Shown here one piece after another: positions 14,780 to 25,267 of a stretch of 64,000 nt of DNA. Position 1 is the first letter of the stretch, and the number at the start of each line of letters is the position of its first letter. The stretch lies in NCBI RefSeq assembly GCF_000027125.1, contig NC_017626.1, one strand, 5' to 3'. Origin of the DNA: Escherichia coli 042. Its GTDB lineage: Bacteria > Pseudomonadota > Gammaproteobacteria > Enterobacterales > Enterobacteriaceae. Made by a program: the position numbers and the translations under genes. Below the pieces are notes generated by a model. The model was not told the origin of the DNA. It searched no databases and saw nothing but the letters and a program-made list of their open reading frames with translations.

Positions 14780-16033
14780 ATGCTGGAACAAATGGGCATT
14801 GCCGCAAAGCAAGCCTCGTATAAATTAGCGCAACTCTCCAGCCGCGAAAAAAATCGTGTGCTGGAAAAAATCGCCGATGAACTGGAAGCACAAAGCGAAA
14901 TCATCCTCAACGCTAACGCCCAGGATGTTGCTGACGCGCGTGCCAATGGCCTTAGCGAAGCGATGCTTGACCGTCTGGCACTGACGCCCGCACGGCTGAA
15001 AGGCATTGCTGACGATGTGCGCCAGGTGTGTAACCTTGCCGATCCGGTGGGGCAGGTAATCGATGGCGGCGTACTGGACAGCGGCCTGCGTCTTGAGCGT
15101 CGTCGCGTACCGCTGGGCGTGATTGGCGTGATTTATGAAGCGCGGCCGAACGTGACGGTTGATGTCGCTTCGCTGTGCCTGAAAACGGGTAACGCGGTGG
15201 TCCTGCGTGGCGGTAAAGAAACCTGCCGCACTAACGCTGCAACGGTGGCGGTGATTCAGGACGCCCTGAAATCCTGCGGCTTACCGGCGGGTGCCGTGCA
15301 GGCGATTGATAATCCTGACCGTGCGCTGGTCAGTGAAATGCTGCGTATGGATAAATACATCGACATGCTGATCCCGCGTGGTGGCGCTGGCCTGCATAAA
15401 CTGTGCCGCGAACAGTCGACGATCCCGGTGATCACAGGTGGTATAGGCGTATGCCATATTTATGTTGATGAAAGTGCAGAGATCGCTGAAGCCCTGAAAG
15501 TAATCGTCAACGCGAAAACCCAGCGTCCGAGCACATGTAATACGGTTGAAACGTTGCTGGTGAATAAAAACATCGCCGATAGCTTCCTGCCCGCATTAAG
15601 CAAACAAATGGCGGAAAGCGGCGTGACATTACACGCAGATGCAGCTGCGCTGGCGCAGTTGCAGACAGGCCCCGCGAAGGTGGTGGCTGTGAAAGCGGAA
15701 GAGTATGACGATGAGTTTCTGTCATTAGATTTGAACGTCAAAATCGTCAGCGATCTTGACGATGCCATCACCCATATTCGTGAACACGGCACACAACACT
15801 CCGATGCGATCCTGACCCGCGATATGCGCAACGCCCAGCGTTTTGTTAACGAAGTGGATTCGTCCGCTGTTTACGTTAACGCCTCTACGCGTTTTACCGA
15901 CGGCGGCCAGTTTGGTCTGGGTGCGGAAGTGGCGGTAAGCACACAAAAACTCCACGCGCGTGGCCCAATGGGGCTGGAAGCACTGACCACTTACAAGTGG
16001 ATCGGCATTGGTGATTACACCATTCGTGCGTAA
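14780..16033 (+). CDS. proA: Gamma-glutamyl phosphate reductase
   Basis: 417 aa; aldehyde dehydrogenase-family sequence directly after proB. Confidence 0.95.
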
Positions 16034-16147
16034 ATAAAACCGGGTGATGCAAAAGTAGCCATTTGATTCACAAGGCCATTGACGCATCGCCCGGTTAGTT
16101 TTAACCTTGTCCACCGTGATTCACGTTCGTGAACATGTCCTTTCAGG

Positions 16148-16223
16148 GCCGATATAGCTCAGTTGGTAGAGCAGCGCATTCGTAATGCGAAGGTCGTAGG
16201 TTCGACTCCTATTATCGGCACCA
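16148..16223 (+). tRNA. thrW: tRNA-Thr (anticodon CGU)
   Basis: 76-nt cloverleaf GCCGATATAGCTCAGTTGGTAGAGCAGCGCATTCGTAATGCG...GGTTCGACTCCTATTATCGGCACCA; anticodon loop TTCGTAA; encoded CCA. Confidence 0.9.
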
Positions 16224-16224
16224 T

Positions 16225-16503
16225 TTAAATCAATAAGTTACACATAATTAGTACCTTCCTTTTTTTTGACTGGGACAAATTTGGGACCGATGGGTTCAGG
16301 ACTGAGTCTATTTGCCGTGCGTGTTCGGTAAGGTGATTAGGCGCGAGGTGAGCATATCGACGAACCATTTCGATAGACTCCCAGCCTCCCATTTCTGAAA
16401 ATGCAAGAAGAGAAACACTGGACTGAACCAGCCTGCTTGCCTTTGCTATCAAAGTACCTTGAAGGCCAGATGATTTCTGGCGATATTTACAGCGCTTCCG
16501 CAA
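16225..16503 (-). pseudogene. C-terminal remnant of a tyrosine recombinase (phage-type integrase), 3' end abutting thrW
   Basis: Translation [26 protein letters not shown] carries the integrase C-terminal box with the catalytic Tyr; at most about 90 codons are available before the next gene, so the catalytic core is missing. Confidence 0.55.
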
Positions 16504-16585
16504 TGAGTTTTTCTCTGTGCCGCCAGAGGCGTTCCCCGCTTTTTCAGCACCGCAATAATGTCGGCGGAATGCCAGTCCTGTTGCA

Positions 16586-17056
16586 TCATGCGGCCACCTC
16601 GCTGATAAATTTTACGCCGTCGGCGGTACGCAGCCAGCGTGGGGCTTTGAGTCCTTCCGTGAAATACCAGACCAGCTCACACAGCAGCCCGGTCAGGGTT
16701 TGCTCCATTTTTGGTTCCGCCGGACGTTCCAGCAGAAGCTGGAGTAGTGCGAGGCAGTATTCGCACAAGGAATCAGGTTCGGAAATAAAGTGCTCTGGTG
16801 TGGCGGGAAGGGTATCCACGGTCAGGCTTTCGGTAAGATGCGGTGGGATGGGGTCGTGTAGTGTGGGTTGCAGTAGCGCAAGAGCCGCGTGAAGCCGCCC
16901 GCAGAGCGCCAGTCGTAGCGCTGGATCGTCGGTTTCAATCAGGGTTTCGGCAAAGCGGGCGCAGTAGTCAGCAAGGACAGTGAAATCCGTGGTGGCATTG
17001 AAGGGGACGGTCAATAGATCGAGTAAATCGCTGTCAGTGGTGAGGATTGTAGCCAT
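16586..17056 (-). CDS. Hypothetical acidic, Leu/Ala/Pro-rich protein (156 aa) of unknown function
   Basis: Clean GC-rich ORF with plausible composition; the overlapping plus-strand ORF is Ser/Arg/Gly-rich and looks like a shadow frame. No motif recognised. Confidence 0.45.
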
Positions 17057-17402
17057 AGGGCAACCTCCGATAAGTGGGTGTTCAAGCCACCACCGGAGAG
17101 GCTAATCTCGCGGGTGGTGGAACCGGGCAGGGTTAGCCTTACCAGCCTTATCGGACACTGGCGCGTCTTGCGACGCCCCCGCCCGGCCCACCATTGAGAT
17201 GTAACCGTGCGAACAACACAAAAAAAGACGCTGGCGCGTCATGTGTCGCCGATAAGATTTCTTCAGGAGGCTAATCCCGACGCCTGATTTTGCAGGCGCG
17301 GGAGAAAGATACTGCGATTGGTCATGAGTGGCAAGGGCTACATCATGTTTACCGACATCTCACGCAAAAATACCCTGATTATTAATAGCGAAAATCAGTT
17401 TC

Positions 17403-20400
17403 TTATTTTGGCGGTAGCTTTTTGCGGTTCTTTGCCAACTGGAATCCTTCAGGTAACGGTTTGAATTTATCGCCGCCTTTAGGCCAGCGTTTTGCCCTGC
17501 TCTGAAATGCCCTTAACGAGTCGATATCCAGCGTTGCAGCGACCACAAAGTCATTATCACCGCCCTTCACACGAGCAATATCACGCATAAAGGGTTCTTT
17601 TGCCGGGGAACGTACGCGACTATCGCCGTATTTTCGGTTATTCACTAAAATAGTATAGGCATGAATATCCAGCGCTGCTGATTCAATCAACGATGCAAAC
17701 GTATCTAGATCTTTATTCCAGCTCAATACCATTAATGCATCGAGTGCGCCCTGAAAACGGATCCTCGCTTTACTATTCTGGAGTTCAGAGCAAATCATAA
17801 CGCCAAAATTGACGCCGTGATGAATATATACCGGCTTACGTTGTTTAACATTAAGTGTCGAATCCCAAGACTTACCATAAGTTGAAAATAATGCCTCATC
17901 TTCACCTACGGCGGGTTCCAGCTTGGGTTGCCATATTTTGACACTCGCTGGATAGCCGAGTCTGTTATCTGAAAGGACAAGTACGGCCTCACTCTTCAGT
18001 TGATTATCGTCTAAGTGGCGGTATTCTGTTCCCGCAATTAGACTGATACCCGCCGAACTCAAACGATCAGCAATACTGTTAACCCAGCGTAACGGGATTG
18101 AAAGCTCAGGGAATAAAACATAATCAGGTTTAGGAGATAGTTTCAATGTTGCATTAACCAGTTCAGAAATCCGCTGGTACCTTGAACGGGACAAGTTAGA
18201 TTTATTGCAGGCCATTTTAGCCCAGTCGTCCTCCTCTGTTTTAATGCTGGTTAGCGCAACGACAACTTTATGTTTCCTGTCTGTGCCAATATGAATGAAT
18301 TTCTTAGGCCGAGCTTTTTTTGTCGCTTCATCTGAGTCCTGCTCCGATGCTAGCAACGTCGGTTTGATCCATACTCCGCGTAATGCTTGAGTATATTTTG
18401 CCCAAATGGTGGACGGTCTCTCATCTGGTTTTTTGTCGGATGTGGAGGGTAATCCAACACATTCGGGGGCCAGTTCTGATATTTCAGCGGGTGTTAAAGG
18501 ACGTGTAGGGAAAATGTAAGGTAGGTAACTTTCGTTCTTACGATTTCCTTTAGCCACTTTTTCCAGTCGGGTATTCTTGGTTGATTTCAAAAATAGCTTA
18601 ATAACGTCAATATCAATAAGCGATGAGTCGCTCATTAATTTCAGTATTTTAACTTCTTTTTTACTATCACGCTGATTAACAAGTTTTTCTGCCGACTGAC
18701 TCTTTACGATCTGTTTATAAGGTTCCTTTGCTAAATCAGCTCGAGCTACCAATGGCGCTTTTAAATAAAAATCTGCTGAATCAAAGCGAAGATCCAGTAA
18801 ATCCTTTAGATTCGTCAGACTTTGTGAAATATGATTAAAAAATGTATCCGCAAGGCACTCTTCTTTCTTTGAACGTTTATCAAGAAATAATCTGTCAGGA
18901 CTGTAATATCGTGTCGCTGCATCAACAAATAGCCAGCTTAATGTGCCTTTTATACAGCGCCAAAGATCATTTACTGCTCGAGTTTTGCAACCATTTATAT
19001 TCACTTCCTTACCTGAAGTAATCACCGATGCCAACAGGTTGATGGATTCGTAAGCTTTAAGTACAATTTTTTCCGCGTGCTGCCATTCATTCATACTGAT
19101 AGCAAAGCCAAGCAGCCTTGGCAGATAACTAAAATGTGCAAATAGATTATCAGCCCTAAGAATATGGTTGTAGGCAAACTGATAAAACTCTTCCCGCTGT
19201 TCTTTCCATTCACTTGGAGGCAGATCTCGTGCCAGTGTTTCAACGTAGCGTAATTGCAGTGACCAGCCCAAACGACGAATGGTTAATCCATCCGCACGGC
19301 GCAGAGTATCGGCATTTTCACCTACACTACCGGCAGCGGAAAGGACTTTAGCTGCGGTGGAGTGTTCCAGTTGATCCGGTGAAGGCATCAAGCGGTGTTC
19401 ACTAGAAAGCTCGTAGATCTCCTTTTCGATACTGTCGAGCAGGTCTATTCCAGCCCTCCCTTGAAGCACGAAAAGTTTTTGCTTATCGGATTGTAACTGG
19501 ATGGTGGTCTTACCCTGGAAATGCTCGCCCTGCTGTATTTGCCATATTTGTTTTTGCTCGTTTTTCAAATAAACGCAATCATTGCCAAGCCTATCTTGCA
19601 GCAATAACATAAATTCGTGATTATTAGTAATTGTCCCTGTATCGCGTATTACAAGGAACATATCATCGACATAACGACCGTAGTGAATTGGTGATAGTTT
19701 TTCAATGACTAATTTATCCCAATGGTGTAGCAATATATTTGAAATGATCCGACTGGCTGTTAATCCAATGACCAGACCACCATTAATAACAGGTGTTTTG
19801 TACGCTATTTTCTTTCCAAATGCCGCTGCGCCGTCAGACCAGTGCTTTAAGAATACTGCTAACTGTGCAGTAAACGCTTTTTCATCCTCAGTCAGTTTTA
19901 TGTTTAGTGTGTTATAGAGATCATCAGAGGTTATAGCCAGTGGATCAATAAAATGATAGTAACTTTTTAAATCCAGTGAGGCGGCGATAATGTCACGATC
20001 TTTTTCCAACTCGTCACGTATAGCTTTTAAGCCATCACCACGCCATTTTTGGTAGGGCTGGAAGTAGGGGCTAAAAGAACCCACGGCACTGATATGGAAT
20101 GGATTATCCTGCTCATTGCTAAATAATTCATCATTACGAATACGCTTTAGCCGCGCGCCATAGCAACAGTTATCTAAGCTGGCATCAAATTTATGCCCGA
20201 CCATGTTAATCCATAGTGCAGAGATAATGTGACTATCAACCGGGAAGTCACCAATAATACGAAACTCTGGTATCAGATCAAAATTATTAAATAAATGGTC
20301 GGCTGCTCGTTTAGGATTAGAAAAGTGGACGTGTCCATTTTGGGATTCATGTTTTTTCTTTGTGGTTAATTTTTTCGGTAACAAACGAAATTTGCCAATC

Positions 20401-20612
20401 AACTTCTTATTGCTACTGAATCCATCTTCGCTCTGCAAAAGATCTAAGAGTTTTTGCAGGTTTTCAAGTAATTCCTGCTCATACTCGGCAAATTTGATAG
20501 CAACAGGAAATGTATTCTCAAAGAAGCTATCGGCTTTTGCTTTCCGGTAAGCGACCAGAAGGTCTTCAATCGTCAGATCATCCCAGCCAGTGAAAATTGC
20601 CTGATATGTCAT
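17403..20612 (-). CDS. Reverse transcriptase fused to a C-terminal nitrilase (carbon-nitrogen hydrolase) domain; candidate anti-phage RT (DRT type 1 / UG1-like)
   Basis: 1069 aa. RT motifs: LDLKSYYHFID (motif A-like, aa 213-223), GGLVIGLTASRIISNIL (motif B-like), HYGRYVDDMFLVI (motif C YVDD, aa 314-317, nt 19662-19673). C-terminal nitrilase triad candidates: FPE (E836), VKIWQPK (K892), GVMICSE (C941). AT-rich relative to flanks. Confidence 0.85.
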   Translation of the reverse strand: MTYQAIFTGWDDLTIEDLLVAYRKAKADSFFENTFPVAIKFAEYEQELLENLQKLLDLLQSEDGFSSNKKLIGKFRLLPKKLTTKKKHESQNGHVHFSNPKRAADHLFNNFDLIPEFRIIGDFPVDSHIISALWINMVGHKFDASLDNCCYGARLKRIRNDELFSNEQDNPFHISAVGSFSPYFQPYQKWRGDGLKAIRDELEKDRDIIAASLDLKSYYHFIDPLAITSDDLYNTLNIKLTEDEKAFTAQLAVFLKHWSDGAAAFGKKIAYKTPVINGGLVIGLTASRIISNILLHHWDKLVIEKLSPIHYGRYVDDMFLVIRDTGTITNNHEFMLLLQDRLGNDCVYLKNEQKQIWQIQQGEHFQGKTTIQLQSDKQKLFVLQGRAGIDLLDSIEKEIYELSSEHRLMPSPDQLEHSTAAKVLSAAGSVGENADTLRRADGLTIRRLGWSLQLRYVETLARDLPPSEWKEQREEFYQFAYNHILRADNLFAHFSYLPRLLGFAISMNEWQHAEKIVLKAYESINLLASVITSGKEVNINGCKTRAVNDLWRCIKGTLSWLFVDAATRYYSPDRLFLDKRSKKEECLADTFFNHISQSLTNLKDLLDLRFDSADFYLKAPLVARADLAKEPYKQIVKSQSAEKLVNQRDSKKEVKILKLMSDSSLIDIDVIKLFLKSTKNTRLEKVAKGNRKNESYLPYIFPTRPLTPAEISELAPECVGLPSTSDKKPDERPSTIWAKYTQALRGVWIKPTLLASEQDSDEATKKARPKKFIHIGTDRKHKVVVALTSIKTEEDDWAKMACNKSNLSRSRYQRISELVNATLKLSPKPDYVLFPELSIPLRWVNSIADRLSSAGISLIAGTEYRHLDDNQLKSEAVLVLSDNRLGYPASVKIWQPKLEPAVGEDEALFSTYGKSWDSTLNVKQRKPVYIHHGVNFGVMICSELQNSKARIRFQGALDALMVLSWNKDLDTFASLIESAALDIHAYTILVNNRKYGDSRVRSPAKEPFMRDIARVKGGDNDFVVAATLDIDSLRAFQSRAKRWPKGGDKFKPLPEGFQLAKNRKKLPPK

Positions 20613-20906
20613 GCGTTATCGTCCTTAGATTACAGTCTGTACAGAATTAGCCAGCCGTTTCATGCCCGAAGGGGGGCTCTTGACACCAGTAATCCATCAG
20701 TGAGGCTGGCAATAATTTTGATTTGTATCCATGTTACACGCTCCCCGCAACCAGTCCGAGCATATATTTGTCACATTTTTCCCGAAAGTGATTAAGTTTG
20801 AATTTTTTGTTTAATGTCGATTTTTAGTCGACAAAATGAGGAATAAGTAAACTATTTCTTGCTGTGGCGTATCCCTGAATCTACACTGGTTTAAATATTT
20901 GTACTA

Positions 20907-21710
20907 ATGTCTATTCAGAGGCGACAGTTGCCAAACTATCTAAACTGGCTGATGCAGCACACGCTACCCGGCCAGGTGCTGCTCCAGTCATGGCTTACCC
21001 GCAACGGCATAGATCGTAAGCTCTCTTATCTCTATGTGAAGAATGGCTGGCTCAGGCGGATCGCTCACGGCGTATACTGCCGGACGGGCCGTGAGCCGGA
21101 TTGGGTAGACGCGGTTTACTGCCTTCAAACACAGTGGGAAAAGCCTGTTCGGGTGGCGGGGCTAACCAGCCTTGCGCTTCAGGGCCATGCGCACTATACC
21201 GAACCGGGTAAGCCGCAGGTCTGGCTCGCGCTTCCGGCTTACGTTAAGCTGCCGGGATGGTTTGCTGCCTTCGAACAATCTGCAACATTTATCACGCTGT
21301 ATACATCGGGGCTTACCGTAGATGTAACGTCATTGACTACGGAACTGAAAATTGGCGACCGCCAGTTAGCAGGCAGTGCCCCGGAACTGGCCGCGTATGA
21401 GATCGCCTGCGGCGTTCCTTCGTTGATATCGTTCGAACATGCCGATGCTCTGTTTCAGGGGATGAATCTTCTCAGCCCGCGTAAATTGCAGGCGTTACTC
21501 TGCGCCAGTCATTCGGTTAAAACCAACCGGGTGATGCTTTACCTTGCCCGGCGTAATGGACACCCTTATTTTCAGTATCTTGATCAAAGCGGTATAGAAA
21601 CAGGTACGGGAAAGCGGCAAATCATACCTGGTGGCTGGCTGGAGCCGGATTATCAAATTACTGTTCCACGCGAATTTAAACCGGAAGGAGTCGAAGATGG
21701 ATCTGCGTGA
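20907..21710 (+). CDS. AbiEi-family transcriptional regulator / type IV antitoxin
   Basis: 267 aa; N-terminal AbiEi-type winged-helix signature (YVKNGWLRRIAHGVYCRTG); overlaps and precedes a nucleotidyltransferase gene. Confidence 0.7.
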   Translation: MSIQRRQLPNYLNWLMQHTLPGQVLLQSWLTRNGIDRKLSYLYVKNGWLRRIAHGVYCRTGREPDWVDAVYCLQTQWEKPVRVAGLTSLALQGHAHYTEPGKPQVWLALPAYVKLPGWFAAFEQSATFITLYTSGLTVDVTSLTTELKIGDRQLAGSAPELAAYEIACGVPSLISFEHADALFQGMNLLSPRKLQALLCASHSVKTNRVMLYLARRNGHPYFQYLDQSGIETGTGKRQIIPGGWLEPDYQITVPREFKPEGVEDGSA

Positions 21711-22617
21711 TAGCTATACCCGGCAGGTCAAACTGTTGATGGACGCTCTGCCGCATGTGGCGAAGGAGTCCGGTTTCGCATTAAAAGGCGGCACCGCAAT
21801 CAATTTGTTTGTGCAGGATTTTCCCCGTCTGTCGGTGGATATCGATCTGGCGTATAAGACTTTTGCGGATCGCGATACCGATTTGACGGCGATCAACGAC
21901 GCTTTGAAGAGAATTACTGCATCGCTGAACAGTAAACCGGGGATTACCGCGATTCGGCAGGAAAATAAAACGGATGAAAAGCGCATCATTGTGAATACGG
22001 CTGATGCCCAGATTAAGATCGAGGTTAGTCCGGTCTGGCGTGGGCTATTGTTGCCTCCGGCAGAAATGTCGGTGTGCGAACGTGTGGAAATGGAGTATGG
22101 CTTCACCACTATGAGTGTCGTTTCGCTGGCGGATCTTTATGGCGGTAAAATCTGCGCAGCGCTTGATCGTCAGCACCCGCGCGATCTGTTTGATGTGCTG
22201 AATATGCTGGAGAAACCGGGACTGATGCGGGAGATCTTTGACGGTTTTCTTTGTTATCTGGCAGGCCATCCCCGCCCCATTGCCGAGTTGCTGGCTCCAA
22301 ACTGGGATACAGAGCGGATCACGACGCTGTATGCTCAGGAATTTTCGGGGATGACTCAGCAGGAAACGTCGCTGGAATCGCTGCTGTCAGTAACGACTTT
22401 GCTGCCGCAGGCGTTGAAGTCACATCTTACGGATCTGGATCGCGAGTTCTTGCTCAGTTTTAAGCAAAACAGCCCTGACTGGTCGCGGTATCGCTATCCT
22501 GAAATTCAGCATCTTCCGGCTATTCGCTGGAAGCAACGTAATCTGGCGGTGCTGAAAGATAAAAATCCGGCGAAGTATGTGGCGGCGGTGAATAAGCTAG
22601 AGAGGGTGCTGGCGTAA
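21697..22617 (+). CDS. AbiEii/AbiGii-family nucleotidyltransferase toxin (DUF1814)
   Basis: Start set at ATG 21697 (GGAAGGAG Shine-Dalgarno, 14-nt overlap with the upstream gene); nucleotidyltransferase motif ALKGGTAINLF...RLSVDIDLA. Confidence 0.75.
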   Translation: MDLRDSYTRQVKLLMDALPHVAKESGFALKGGTAINLFVQDFPRLSVDIDLAYKTFADRDTDLTAINDALKRITASLNSKPGITAIRQENKTDEKRIIVNTADAQIKIEVSPVWRGLLLPPAEMSVCERVEMEYGFTTMSVVSLADLYGGKICAALDRQHPRDLFDVLNMLEKPGLMREIFDGFLCYLAGHPRPIAELLAPNWDTERITTLYAQEFSGMTQQETSLESLLSVTTLLPQALKSHLTDLDREFLLSFKQNSPDWSRYRYPEIQHLPAIRWKQRNLAVLKDKNPAKYVAAVNKLERVLA

Positions 22618-22682
22618 TCAATAGACCAGCATTAATCACAGAAGATTACCAATCAGACAGAAATGGTTAAATCGTCGAATTC

Positions 22683-22850
22683 ATAATTAATACTTTTTCT
22701 TACGCCGCTGAACAGCTTGAAAAGGATACATATTTTAAATATCAGTGAAGTGAACAGTTTATTGCCGTTATTAATAGAGATGGAGGAATAAATACGCGTA
22801 TTCTACTATTGCAACAAAAAAAACGATGATGATCAGTTTTCATAATGAAG
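22683..22850 (-). repeat. Decayed paralogous copy of the ykgO 3' end plus ykgR region (duplicate of sequence at 41307-41340 and 42020-42176)
   Basis: 22683-22720 aligns to the rpmJ2 3' end at about 75% identity with a 1-nt frameshift (tail ...AVQRRKKKY vs ...AVQGRKKKR); 22723-22850 is about 90% identical to 42030-42160 but with a roughly 28-nt deletion in the ykgR-like frame. Confidence 0.5.
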
Positions 22851-23059
22851 TAACCTGACAGATATAAAAATGTTGATTGAGGCTCAATGCCCGAATGAAG
22901 GTTGTCGAGGGAGCCAGGTGGTTTTTTCTTTTGGGTGATCTCCATTGCTGGATAGTCCCCTCTTTCTCGCTCAAAGCAGGGTGTACAGACCCTGGAATTG
23001 AACGCAGAGGGACTACCTGACACAATTTTGCACAGTGAAGAGTCGGTCGTTATTAACGT

Positions 23060-23944
23060 TCAGATTTTCAATGTATCAATGACCATCCGCAGGGCGGGGG
23101 AGACGTTGCGATGAGGGTAATAGAGAAACAATCCCTCCATTCGCAGGCTGTAACGCTGCAACACCCTGATAAGCTTACCGTGTTCTAAATCATCCGCGAC
23201 CAGTTCAACAGGAACATAGGCCAATCCGAGGCCCAGCCGGGCTGCTTCTGCTTCCATATAGCTGTCGGATAAGGCCCATTGCCCTTCAGGGCGATGAGTG
23301 ATTTTTTTATCATCCTGATTGAGTTCCCACTGGTATACGCTGCCGTCGGCAAACTGATAGGCGATACAGGGATGCGCCTTTAAATCCGCCGGGGTTTGCG
23401 GAAAACCATAGCGACGAAAATGTTCCGGAGTCCCCACAATTGCCATCTCCATATCGGGCGTGATGCGTACCGCGACCATACCCTGGCCGACTTCAGGCCC
23501 CAGGCGGACACCTGCATCGAATCTTTCCTCGATGATATCGACGAACCGGCTCTCATTTATCAGTTCAAGCCGGATATCAGGATATCGCTGTTTAAATACC
23601 GCCAGATTTGGCAGCAGGCATTTATCAATCGCGTGCTGGCTGGCATTGATACGCACCGTGCCGGAGGGCGTCTCTCGATAGTGCGCCAGCGTGGCAAGCC
23701 CAAGATCTAACATTTCAAATCCAGATGCCGTCTTCTGGTAGAGCTGCTCGCCTGCTTGTGTCAGCGACAGTTTACGCGTGGTGCGCACTAGCAGCTGGAC
23801 ACCCAGCCTTTCTTCAAGCTCGCGAACAGAACGGCTGACTCCTGACTGAGCAAGACCCAGCCGCTGAGCCGCTGCGGTAAAGCTGCCTTCTCGCACCACC
23901 TGCATAAACAGGTACAGCTCGTTGTAGTTCTCCCTTTTCGCCAT
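23060..23944 (-). CDS. LysR-family transcriptional regulator
   Basis: 294 aa; N-terminal HTH (FTAAAQRLGLAQSGVSRSVRELEERLGVQLLVRTTR) and LysR substrate-binding domain; divergent from the hydrolase gene. Confidence 0.85.
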   Translation of the reverse strand: MAKRENYNELYLFMQVVREGSFTAAAQRLGLAQSGVSRSVRELEERLGVQLLVRTTRKLSLTQAGEQLYQKTASGFEMLDLGLATLAHYRETPSGTVRINASQHAIDKCLLPNLAVFKQRYPDIRLELINESRFVDIIEERFDAGVRLGPEVGQGMVAVRITPDMEMAIVGTPEHFRRYGFPQTPADLKAHPCIAYQFADGSVYQWELNQDDKKITHRPEGQWALSDSYMEAEAARLGLGLAYVPVELVADDLEHGKLIRVLQRYSLRMEGLFLYYPHRNVSPALRMVIDTLKI

Positions 23945-24109
23945 TGAAACATCCCCCCTTCATGCCGGCAATCTCCGCATTAATTTATAACAATATGGTA
24001 TTAATCTTAGCATTAATCGCCCCCTAATCAGCACTAATTCTGCTCACTATAATGACCCCATCAAAGCAAAGCACTGCAGCGTTGTCCGTCGGAAACCTGT
24101 ATCTCTCTG

Positions 24110-25267
24110 TTGTTTTTTATGGGGATTTTTATGAAAGCCTTCACCCGAACGCTAAAAACCGCGATGCCGACCATGCTGCTTTTCGCGTCATTATGTGGAG
24201 TCACGACAATGAGTTATGCTGATTCAACCAATCCTAATGCCCCTGTGTCCATGACAGATAAATGGGATAAAACGTTCGCCGAGAGCCAGAAAGTCGATCA
24301 CCGTAAAGTATCGTTCCCGAACCGATATGGCATCACCTTAGTGGGCGATCTTTACCTGCCTAAAGACCGTGGCGATCGCAAGCTGGCGGCGATTGCGGTC
24401 AGTGGGCCATTTGGCGCGGTGAAAGAGCAATCCAGCGGCCTGTATGCGCAGACGCTGGCGGAACGAGGGTTTGTTACCCTGGCGTTCGATCCTTCTTACA
24501 CCGGGGAAAGCGGCGGCTATCCGCGAAACGTCGCCTCACCGGATATCAACACTGAAGATTTCAGCGCGGCGGTGGATTTCTTAGGGCTGCAAAAAGAGGT
24601 AGATCGCAACCGTATCGGGCTGCTCGGTATTTGTGGCTGGGGCGGCATGGCGCTGAACGACGTGGCGATGGATACCCGCGTTAAAGCGGTAGCTACCAGC
24701 GTGATGTATGACATGAGCCGGGCGATGGGTCATGGTGTGGGGGATGGCAAAGACCGTTATTCTACCGCCGACCGTCGTGCCGTTCTGCAATATCTGAATG
24801 AACAGCGCTGGAAGGATGCGCAGAGCGGAACGTTCGCTCACGGTGGTCATGATATTAATGTCGACAGCAACGGCAAGGTCAGTGCGGGCGAGCGCATTCT
24901 GCCAGAAACGCTGCCGGCAAATCCTCATCCGGTACTGAAAGAGTTCTTTGACTACTATCGCATGCCGCGCGGCTTCCACGAACGTTCCGTTAACTCTACC
25001 GGGGCGTGGACGGCAACGATGCCGCTGTCATTTATGAATATGCCGCTGTTGAGCTACGCCAGTGAAATCACCATTCCGACGCTGATTGTGACCGGTGAGA
25101 AAGCGCATTCACGCTATTTTGCTGAAGATGCTTACAAGGCGGTTGGCAGTAAAGACAAAGAGTTGGTGGTGGTACCAGGGGCAAATCACGTGGACCTGTA
25201 CGATAACGTGGCCGGAAAAATACCTTTCGCGAAGTTCGAACAATTTTTCCAGACCAAACTGAAATAA
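24110..25267 (+). CDS. Alpha/beta-hydrolase (dienelactone-hydrolase-like) with N-terminal signal peptide
   Basis: Signal-like N-terminus (MKAFTRTLKTAMPTMLLFASLCGVTTMSYA; start could be ATG 24131); hydrolase core LGICGWGG; paralogous to the protein at 44037-44957. Confidence 0.8.
   Translation: MFFMGIFMKAFTRTLKTAMPTMLLFASLCGVTTMSYADSTNPNAPVSMTDKWDKTFAESQKVDHRKVSFPNRYGITLVGDLYLPKDRGDRKLAAIAVSGPFGAVKEQSSGLYAQTLAERGFVTLAFDPSYTGESGGYPRNVASPDINTEDFSAAVDFLGLQKEVDRNRIGLLGICGWGGMALNDVAMDTRVKAVATSVMYDMSRAMGHGVGDGKDRYSTADRRAVLQYLNEQRWKDAQSGTFAHGGHDINVDSNGKVSAGERILPETLPANPHPVLKEFFDYYRMPRGFHERSVNSTGAWTATMPLSFMNMPLLSYASEITIPTLIVTGEKAHSRYFAEDAYKAVGSKDKELVVVPGANHVDLYDNVAGKIPFAKFEQFFQTKLK

Follow-up and report, generated by a model that had tools for sequence, protein, structure and literature searches.

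The tRNA gene thrW of Escherichia coli 042 is bordered by a decayed defense island of about 6.4 kb, with an integrase remnant of about 200 bases at its edge. Comparison of this remnant (referred to below as the stub) with phages, prophages, and related islands indicates that it is very probably the scar of a vanished Sf/P22-like prophage, which was fused by deletion to a separate defense island at a thrW site that has been used serially. The analysis covered the whole stretch of DNA presented here, a window of 64,000 nucleotides (64 kb), and the features that were identified are listed in Table 1. The locus corresponds to the GI-thrW island of ST131 and to a known defense hotspot, and loci of this kind have been described before. 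What is new is the chimeric junction between the stub and the cargo, together with the microhomology at the right end of the island.

Table 1. Features identified at the thrW locus, with positions given in the 64-kb window.
Feature	Position	Strand	Evidence
thrW, tRNA-Thr(CGU), intact	16148..16223	+	ARAGORN; Rfam tRNA 71.8 bits
3' part of thrW, forming the 46-bp att core of P22/SfI/SfII/SfV/SfX-type phages	16178..16223	+	string identity with the published core
Integrase pseudogene (stub), retaining the final ~62-68 codons of a thrW integrase of the SfIV/P22 type	16238..16441	-	tblastn, DNA identity
Left deletion junction, at which codon ~72 of the Ner-like gene meets integrase codon ~305 over a GGC microhomology	16439..16443		three-way alignment
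Ner/SfsB-like HTH gene remnant (HTH_35)	16442..16589	-	Pfam HTH_35 2.6e-05; NCBIfam SfsB 5.2e-07
156-aa gene, intact, part of the conserved island frame	16586..17056	-	homologues, dN/dS
C4-type antisense RNA	17110..17198	-	Rfam RF01695, 71.1 bits, full length
isrK-like sRNA with a1/b1 C4 target sites (17221-17312), with promoter-like site	17221..17334	-	Rfam isrK 68.8 bits
Variable cargo slot, DRT gene as its sole content here	17336..20703		homology breaks against relatives
UG5-nitrilase (defense-associated reverse transcriptase fused to a nitrilase), 1069 aa, intact	17403..20612	-	PADLOC RT_UG5-nitrilase 1034 bits
AbiEi antitoxin/regulator (type IV TA)	20907..21710	+	Pfam AbiEi_3 3.1e-35, AbiEi_3_N 1.9e-29; PADLOC AbiEi 1.6e-79
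AbiEii nucleotidyltransferase toxin (longest ORF; annotated start further in)	21631..22617	+	Pfam AbiEii 9e-35; PADLOC AbiEii 1e-115
Right deletion junction, 12-bp microhomology	22607..22618		homology end points

The att core and the integrase stub

The tRNA-Thr(CGU) gene ending at 16223, which had been recognized in an earlier note made from the sequence alone, was recovered by both ARAGORN and Rfam. It was the single tRNA gene reported by ARAGORN in the whole window, and its sequence is 100% identical to the copies in ST131 and K-12. Among the tDNA integration sites of E. coli, thrW is one of the most heavily used (PMC7545054), and a 46-bp att core at this gene is common to SfI, SfII, SfV, SfX, and P22 (PMC3636060). 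The core in the window, ATTCGTAATGCGAAGGTCGTAGGTTCGACTCCTATTATCGGCACCA, is letter for letter the same as the published sequence (PMC3636060), and only one copy of it was found when both strands of the 64 kb were searched.

A minus-strand ORF of 92 amino acids (16225-16503) lies two bases past thrW. It contains the C-terminal box of an integrase, as previously described, and was matched by Pfam, PHROG, and tblastn searches. The match to the Pfam domain Phage_integrase covers positions 137-171 of the 172-position profile (E 5.3e-05), and its score of 23.5 bits falls under the cutoff of 27.1 bits owing to the short length of the match; PHROG integrase families also matched the ORF (phrog_1, 8.4e-10). 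When the full-length, 372-aa integrase of a thrW prophage was used as the tblastn query, residues 306-367 alone were aligned, with 50 of 62 residues identical and the alignment beginning right after the HDLRHTW box. Residues 1-305, which include the N-terminal arm-binding and core-binding domains, gave no alignment in 16101-17400.

The ORF has close to the 90 codons that were earlier attributed to the integrase, but only about 62 of its 92 codons are derived from that gene. A three-way alignment revealed the first 21 codons or so to be an out-of-frame reading of the adjacent Ner-like gene remnant, while the stop at 16225 arose when a T-run near 16260 lost one nucleotide; the stop codon of the native gene corresponds to 16238-16240. 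The catalytic domain of a complete tyrosine recombinase contains the residues R..K..HxxR..H/W..Y. In the stub this set is incomplete: 83% of the gene is gone, including the HxxR box, and the W and Y positions are the sole surviving catalytic residues. The integrase is hence inactive and does keep the catalytic tyrosine, both as proposed in the earlier note. In strain MEI003, which is 99% identical, the gene was annotated by PGAP as "integrase, frameshifted, missing N-terminus".

The full-length integrase used in this comparison is 99.7% identical to Int of the Shigella phage SfIV and 89.5% identical to Int of P22. At the DNA level, the segment 16179-16395, composed of 45 bp of the thrW 3' end and the next 172 bp, is 96.8-97.2% identical to the attP-int regions of SfII, SfV, and SfI, and the longer segment 16179-16441 is 90.9% identical to SfIV. 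The stub is homologous to thrW-specific P22/Sf integrases, and its 3' end abuts the 46-bp core as in phage attP. Given the match of the core and the 97% identity to a phage attP-int region, a lambdoid prophage of the Sf/P22 type most likely left the stub behind as the phage-derived side of its attL. The window has the identical 46-bp core and the same convergent orientation of int and thrW as SfII, SfV, SfI, SfIV, and P22. Unlike these phages, it retains only the last 17% or so of int, with a frameshifted tail; xis, the gtr genes, and all other phage genes are absent.

The left junction was placed by aligning the window with the full-length Ner gene of Salmonella and with a full-length integrase, and the end points of blastn matches agreed with this placement. 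The fusion point lies at about 16441-16443, across a 3-bp GGC that both genes have in common, and it cuts both of them mid-codon. The Ner remnant, annotated by PGAP as a pseudogene in MEI003, also has an internal deletion of 65 bp and has lost its last 12 codons or so relative to the 84-aa Salmonella homologue. The same left junction is found in ST131, where the identity to the window is 98% over 16442-16585 but only 62% in the 172 bp adjoining the tRNA gene, giving a mosaic identity profile. As the junction is common to the alleles of both strains, the truncation of the integrase is old. The sharp drop in identity on the tRNA side further suggests that the tRNA-proximal 172 bp may later have been exchanged for those of a further Sf-type phage, which integrated, recombined with the locus, and has since been lost.

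Alternatively, the stub could represent the cargo island's own integrase, truncated in place by an internal deletion, so that the DNA between 16224 and roughly 22.6 kb once formed a single integrative element driven by it. The direct adjacency of the stub and the cargo is compatible with this origin, as is the retention of the stub/Ner junction in more than 1,000 genomes and in two diverged alleles; members of this island family also swap integrase modules between tRNA sites, and a lost variant with an Sf/P22-type integrase is conceivable. However, no Sf/P22-type integrase was present in the intact relatives that were found, namely the islands of Klebsiella, E. albertii, and Salmonella, all of which have other integrases. 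Salmonella, whose island also occupies thrW, has the integrase at the opposite end, beside attR. The mid-codon cut in both genes is what would be expected for a fusion of unrelated neighbors, and the stub together with the core is 97% identical to a bona fide phage attP-int region. A common origin of the stub and the cargo is therefore improbable, and the scar of a separate Sf/P22-like prophage is the reading adopted in the following sections.

The island frame and its cargo

Behind the left junction, the minus strand encodes, in the order toward thrW, a promoter-like site (17334-17306), an isrK-like sRNA with a terminator-like site (17240-17227), a C4-type RNA, the 156-aa gene, and the Ner remnant. 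The C4 and isrK matches score above their Rfam gathering scores of 45 and 50, respectively, while the c4-a1b1 match in the isrK-like region, at 43.8 bits, is 2.9 below its gathering score of 46.7. The isrK-like region overlaps an ORF annotated by PGAP as "ash family protein".

In Enterobacterales, 646 homologues of the 156-aa protein were found. The dN/dS of its gene was 0.10 in comparison with the ST131 allele and 0.21 in comparison with the paralogous islands of Klebsiella and E. coli, values that indicate purifying selection on this frame gene. No match to the protein was identified in Pfam, PADLOC, NCBIfam, or PHROG, and Pfam and PHROG revealed no detectable similarity to antirepressors. 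A phage origin of the gene was considered and rejected: there was no relative in the viral contigs of IMG/VR, and a phage collection gave only one unannotated fragment of 1.4 kb. The gene hence provides no evidence for a phage-borne cargo.

The arrangement may correspond to the immI-type C4 module of P1/P7 and the isrK locus of Gifsy-1, in which a C4 RNA with upstream a1/b1 target sites precedes a small ORF and an effector gene. The positions of orf45 and anrP (PMC4825925) are occupied in the window by the "ash" ORF and the 156-aa gene, respectively, but the 156-aa protein showed no similarity to antirepressors in the Pfam and PHROG searches. A tentative reading, taken as a whole, is that the 156-aa protein might be an antirepressor-like switch under the control of the C4 RNA, coupling phage infection to the expression of the island, and that the frame might be a portable docking scaffold for defense cassettes. 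Such a scaffold would move among islands with unrelated integrases at thrW, tRNA-Asn, and tRNA-Phe, and it would continue to work and to swap its cargo by homologous recombination after the loss of site-specific mobility. A conserved frame with predicted RNA control around a swappable defense slot may be of modest interest for the study of defense islands.

The homology to the islands of ST131, Salmonella, Klebsiella, and other E. coli ends at 17321-17337 and restarts at 20704-20908, and the content of the slot between these breaks varies among relatives. The parts on either side make up the conserved frame of the island: the promoter-like site, the isrK and C4 RNAs, the small "ash" ORF, the 156-aa gene, and Ner on one side, and AbiEi/AbiEii on the other. 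In ST131 and Salmonella it is composed of hsdRMS, and in Klebsiella of a DUF4747 gene and a gene for a 185-aa protein. The GC content of the cargo in the window is 36-46% (reverse transcriptase region), in contrast to 50-58% in the flanks.

The protein encoded in the slot matched the RT_UG5-nitrilase profile over its full length, including both the reverse transcriptase and the C-terminal nitrilase parts. The PADLOC match (PDLC03780) covers positions 9-901 of a 907-position profile, RTasNitrilase was located on residues 783-1058, and a YVDD motif is visible in the translation. The protein is 95.2% identical to an E. albertii copy over the full length. A UG5-large RT-nitrilase, DRT11, has been reported to be active as a defense module in Sinorhizobium (bioRxiv 10.64898/2025.12.16.694600). 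To the right of the slot, AbiEi and AbiEii are encoded by adjacent and overlapping ORFs, the arrangement of a type IV TA/abortive infection system. As judged from their sequences, the predicted defense genes of the remnant are intact. A P4-like satellite was also considered and rejected as the source of the region, as none of the hallmark genes psu, delta, sid, epsilon, and alpha (primase) was identified among all ORFs in 16225-22617 through Pfam, PADLOC, NCBIfam, and PHROG.

The right end and the distribution of the arrangement

The homology to the AbiE genes of ST131 ends at 22618, while the backbone homology to strain DETEC-S586 and to the O157 strain Sakai starts at 22607. The 12 bases in which they overlap, TGCTGG(C/A)GTAAT, occur at the AbiEii stop codon and again in the backbone. 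In comparison with Sakai, the window is missing attR, yagP, an oxidoreductase gene, and a hypothetical gene, or about 2.5 kb in total. These end points indicate that the right end of the island is a microhomology deletion and not an att site, and a deletion at this position would have taken out attR, which explains why none was found.

The absence of attR was evident from several searches. A direct repeat of the tRNA 3' end had not been seen by eye when the sequence was first read, which was confirmed computationally for the whole window, and the mismatch-tolerant search for a partial repeat that the earlier note had recommended likewise revealed no attR in the 64 kb. Specifically, a second copy of the 23-mer was absent from the 64 kb at up to three mismatches, and gapped local alignment of the 45/46-bp core, performed on 16.2-40 kb and on both strands of the whole window, produced nothing above shuffled controls. 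The best candidate, near 53.58 kb, was rejected, as it had a gapped and interrupted match with a score of 17, compared to maxima of 12-17 among the shuffled sequences.

Additionally, the RefSeq annotation of the near-identical MEI003 has no other recombinase from the stub to the backbone genes, nor any beyond them. Among the typical properties of genomic islands, the region has a tRNA gene at its boundary, a variable presence among strains, and a deviant base composition. An integrase is present only as the stub, and the window has no second copy of the tRNA 3' end that would make up a flanking attL/attR repeat, while the relatives in Salmonella, ST131, and Klebsiella have one. With neither an attR nor an intact recombinase, site-specific excision of the element is impossible. 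The element had earlier been described as probably fixed, which holds for site-specific mobility but not for the cargo, which varies among lineages between the conserved flanks (DRT versus type I R-M).

Another possibility considered was that a resident or incoming thrW phage might supply an integrase that mobilizes the remnant in trans, with attL and a cryptic attR as its substrates. The attL is intact with the full 46-bp core, and matching thrW phages are common, as about 1,340 genomes encode a full-length integrase that shares the 3' end of the stub. Nonetheless, such a mobilization is highly unlikely, since neither a second nor a recognizable partial copy of the core occurs on either strand of the 64 kb, and since the AbiEii stop codon is itself fused to the backbone at the right end.

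The whole arrangement, counted as the stretch 15500-24500 (9 kb) at a coverage of at least 80%, was found in 258 of the 5,426 complete E. coli genomes. In most genomes the match was confined to proA and thrW, and the sequences of K-12 and the majority of strains depart from the window within about 10-30 bp past the tRNA gene. A stub with a diverged inner 45 bp and the shared junction was present in 1,111 genomes, and the roughly 1,340 further genomes noted above matched the outer 172 bp only, within full-length integrases such as that of Sakai Sp1. Two alleles of the adjacent module 16441-17400 were distinguished among the 803 genomes that have it (257 at 99% or higher, 717 at about 90%). The RT-nitrilase gene was found in 260 E. 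coli genomes, in all but one at an identity of at least 99%.

The earlier note had reasoned that the integrase-like segment would be backbone if it and the downstream genes were contiguous with thrW in all E. coli, a distribution that the count of 258 contradicts. Its proposal that the stub marks the left boundary of an integrative element is retained insofar as this is the edge of an accessory region, but the cargo most likely had an integrase other than the one preserved in the stub. A comparison with strains in which thrW is empty had also been proposed as a means to define both junctions. The closest to such a site was found in DETEC-S586, which keeps a stub of about 70 bp of the other integrase allele and a fragment of yagP. 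As this site is only nearly empty, the attR flank of Sakai was used to define the ancestral right flank, and the right junction was defined through DETEC-S586 and Sakai.

The idea that the E. coli chromosome ancestrally included the stub and the genes downstream of it, and that other strains lost them by deletion, is hardly credible: while nearly every E. coli examined has an integrase-like scar past thrW, even DETEC-S586 and the attR flank of K-12, the census tested this idea directly and recovered the arrangement only in the minority given above, the GC content of the cargo is low, the same 6-kb block occurs in E. albertii at a different tRNA gene with its own integrase, and the right end is a microhomology junction without the backbone genes that are present in Sakai.

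Related islands and the proposed history

Islands with the same frame were found in other genera and at other tRNA genes. The thrW island of Salmonella enterica is composed of thrW, an Integrase_1-family pseudogene, an 84-aa Ner gene, the 156-aa gene, hsdSMR, AbiEi/AbiEii, a 439-aa integrase, and a 45-bp core repeat. It has the same frame and tRNA gene as the window, with identities of 85% (amino acid) for the 156-aa gene and 86% (nucleotide) for AbiE. In contrast to the window, it is largely intact, with a full Ner gene, an intact 439-aa integrase beside attR, and a type I R-M cargo, and it has no Sf/P22-type stub beyond about 19 bp.

In Klebsiella, the order is tRNA-Phe, a P4-type integrase, an Integrase_1-family gene, HTH_35, a 153-aa gene, the DUF4747 and 185-aa genes, AbiEi/AbiEii, and TacAT. 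This island of about 9.9 kb is closed by a 17-20-bp repeat of the tRNA end (attR), and both frame segments of the window match it, at 76% and 87%.

The closest full block to the DRT-carrying copy in the window was in the tRNA-Asn island of E. albertii. This island is collinear with 16562-22612 at an identity of 90.6% over 6,059 bp, including the RT-nitrilase and AbiE genes. It differs in its location at a tRNA-Asn site next to mtfA, in its 420-aa P4-type integrase and Integrase_1-family gene, and in an XRE-type HTH at the place of Ner in the window. The same RT-nitrilase/AbiE block hence occurs at two different tRNA genes in two Escherichia species.

Among the relatives, integrases of the 439-aa type are located next to AbiE and P4-type ones toward Ner. 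The Salmonella 439-aa integrase is 95% identical to the integrase pseudogene of ST131, which in turn shares only 22-26% identity with IntF, IntS, and P4-type integrases, so that at least four integrase lineages use thrW. The four thrW-associated integrases that were compared are 22-31% identical to each other.

The present-day arrangements are consistent with the following history, the order of which is inferred. At first, thrW would have harbored an island of this frame family whose 439-aa integrase lay next to attR, the arrangement seen in Salmonella. Integration of an Sf/P22-like phage into thrW, ahead of the island, would then have produced a tandem array similar to Sp1-Sp2 of Sakai. A deletion from within the phage int to within Ner would have removed the prophage along with the left end of the island, including the Integrase_1-family gene and the end of Ner. 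In the lineage of the window, a second deletion would have removed the island integrase, attR, and yagP. The conserved flanks may meanwhile have allowed homologous recombination to spread or exchange the predicted defense genes; the different cargos in the same frame and the RT-nitrilase block shared with the tRNA-Asn island of E. albertii suggest such an exchange of cassettes. The history of thrW is nonetheless more complex than two deletions, as evidenced by a second stub in ST131 to the right of attR.

An integrase pseudogene beside thrW is a textbook scar that is already annotated in RefSeq, and its importance is small. The locus does offer two lessons for annotation: the recombinase fragment nearest to a tRNA gene may not belong to the adjacent cargo, and the ends of an island can be microhomology deletions instead of att sites. 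With a chimeric stub at one end and a microhomology at the other, the calling of boundaries by a tRNA gene, an integrase, and a direct repeat fails here.

The closest described counterpart is the GI-thrW of ST131, named in strain EC958, where it carries the gene for the type I methyltransferase M.EcoMIII (PMC4659465). It has the same site, the same int-stub/Ner junction, and the "ash"/C4 region, with nucleotide identities of 92% in the 156-aa gene and an identity of 93% in AbiEi/AbiEii. The two differ in the cargo slot, which holds hsdRMS instead of the RT-nitrilase, and in the 172 bp next to the tRNA gene, which in ST131 derive from another integrase allele. They also differ on the right side, where three features that the window has lost remain beyond AbiEii in ST131: a 1,320-bp integrase pseudogene, a 45-bp attR, and the second stub. 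The ST131 island is otherwise arranged like that of Salmonella, with the stub/Ner fusion as its left end and, on the right, the inactivated integrase of the 439-aa type, then the 45-bp repeat, and then the second stub.

Serial occupation of thrW by lambdoid phages whose integrase is of the stub's type and by islands with P4 integrases, with core repeats between them, is also known from Sp1/Sp2 of O157:H7 Sakai and from CP4-6 of K-12. In Sakai, the lambda-like Sp1 and the P4-like Sp2 are in tandem at thrW and separated by a 47-bp copy of the core, and the Sp1 integrase is 96.5% identical to the stub over its 172 bp. The arrays of Sakai and CP4-6 keep their att repeats and a larger gene content, while the window has only a fused remnant; Sp2 carries psu, sid, and a primase gene, which are missing in the window.

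On a broader scale, the chromosomal position of the locus is the same as that of hotspot #33 of Hochhauser et al. (2023), which is defined by yagP..proA and tRNA_Thr_CGT and was occupied in 555 genomes, including 275 with defense systems (PMC10121019, supplementary file 2). AbiEii was restricted to hotspots #5, #33, and #37 in the same study, where "integrase-only" islands of unclear mobility were described at #33 (PMC10121019). The window differs from this definition in that the right marker, yagP, has itself been deleted.

Cargo between conserved flanks

The slot content varied among the five loci compared. An RT-nitrilase was found in the window and in Escherichia albertii and a type I restriction-modification system in ST131 and Salmonella; in Klebsiella, the slot contains a DUF4747 gene together with one that encodes 185 aa. 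The flanks of the slot share 76-93% identity between species and between three different tRNA sites. The UG5 RT-nitrilase of the window is broken into two ORFs in strain MEI003, which is otherwise 99% identical, and it is disrupted by an IS5-like element in one other genome.

Features of the thrW island and its right flank (window positions)
Feature	Position	Strand	Remarks
156-aa protein gene	16586-17056	minus	646 homologues across Enterobacterales
'ash family protein' ORF (RefSeq name)	17102-17334	minus	Overlaps the Rfam C4 and isrK matches
C4 antisense RNA	17110-17198	minus	Full-length Rfam match
isrK	17221-17299	minus	Full-length Rfam match
Cargo slot	17336-20703		Between conserved flanks; compared with loci L003 (ST131), L010 (Klebsiella), L018 (E. 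albertii), and L021 (Salmonella)
UG5 RT-nitrilase	17403-20612	minus	1069 aa; intact
Partial duplicate of the ykgL/ykgO-ykgR region	22607-22839		Includes a ykgR fragment; directly right of the island

Repeated occupation of the thrW site

Two different integrase-stub alleles were found to adjoin copies of the thrW core, with their positions swapped. In ST131 (L003 15569-15819), the stub type of the window is located at attR and another type at attL; the attR of CP4-6 in K-12 (L014 37204-37283) is followed by a stub of the ST131 attL type. The swapped alleles record repeated integration and loss at the thrW site. The thrW allele of E. coli DETEC-S586 (L001 3646-3721) differs from that of the window (16148-16223) by two compensatory T-stem changes, G..C for T..A, which fits the idea that different integrating elements provide the 3' part of the tRNA.

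E. coli TST3 (L017 10795-16861) provides a present-day case of tandem occupation. An intact homologue of the 439-aa-type integrase of ST131, with 75% DNA identity, closes a different island, on which a pair of genes with a UvrD-helicase domain and a Tn10-like insertion for tetracycline resistance are carried. Directly after this integrase comes a complete lambdoid prophage that has an integrase of its own. At the right flank of the window's island, the partial ykgL/ykgO-ykgR duplicate adjoins a LysR gene, and it shares 76% and 91% identity with the true copies, which lie some 20 kb further downstream.

The C4/isrK region and the 156-aa gene

The 'ash' ORF overlaps more than the two RNA matches on the minus strand: a terminator is present there too, as are a promoter-like site and the a1/b1 target sites. 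The 156-aa gene always follows the C4/isrK region directly and precedes a small HTH gene; its dN/dS was 0.10-0.21. No family in the profile libraries matched its product, which is shown fused to 'ash' in some annotations. In C4/isrK-type modules, the place held here by this gene is the position of the antirepressor. The 'ash' product may be largely a translated RNA region, or it may correspond to orf45, a small ORF in the isrK locus of Gifsy-1.
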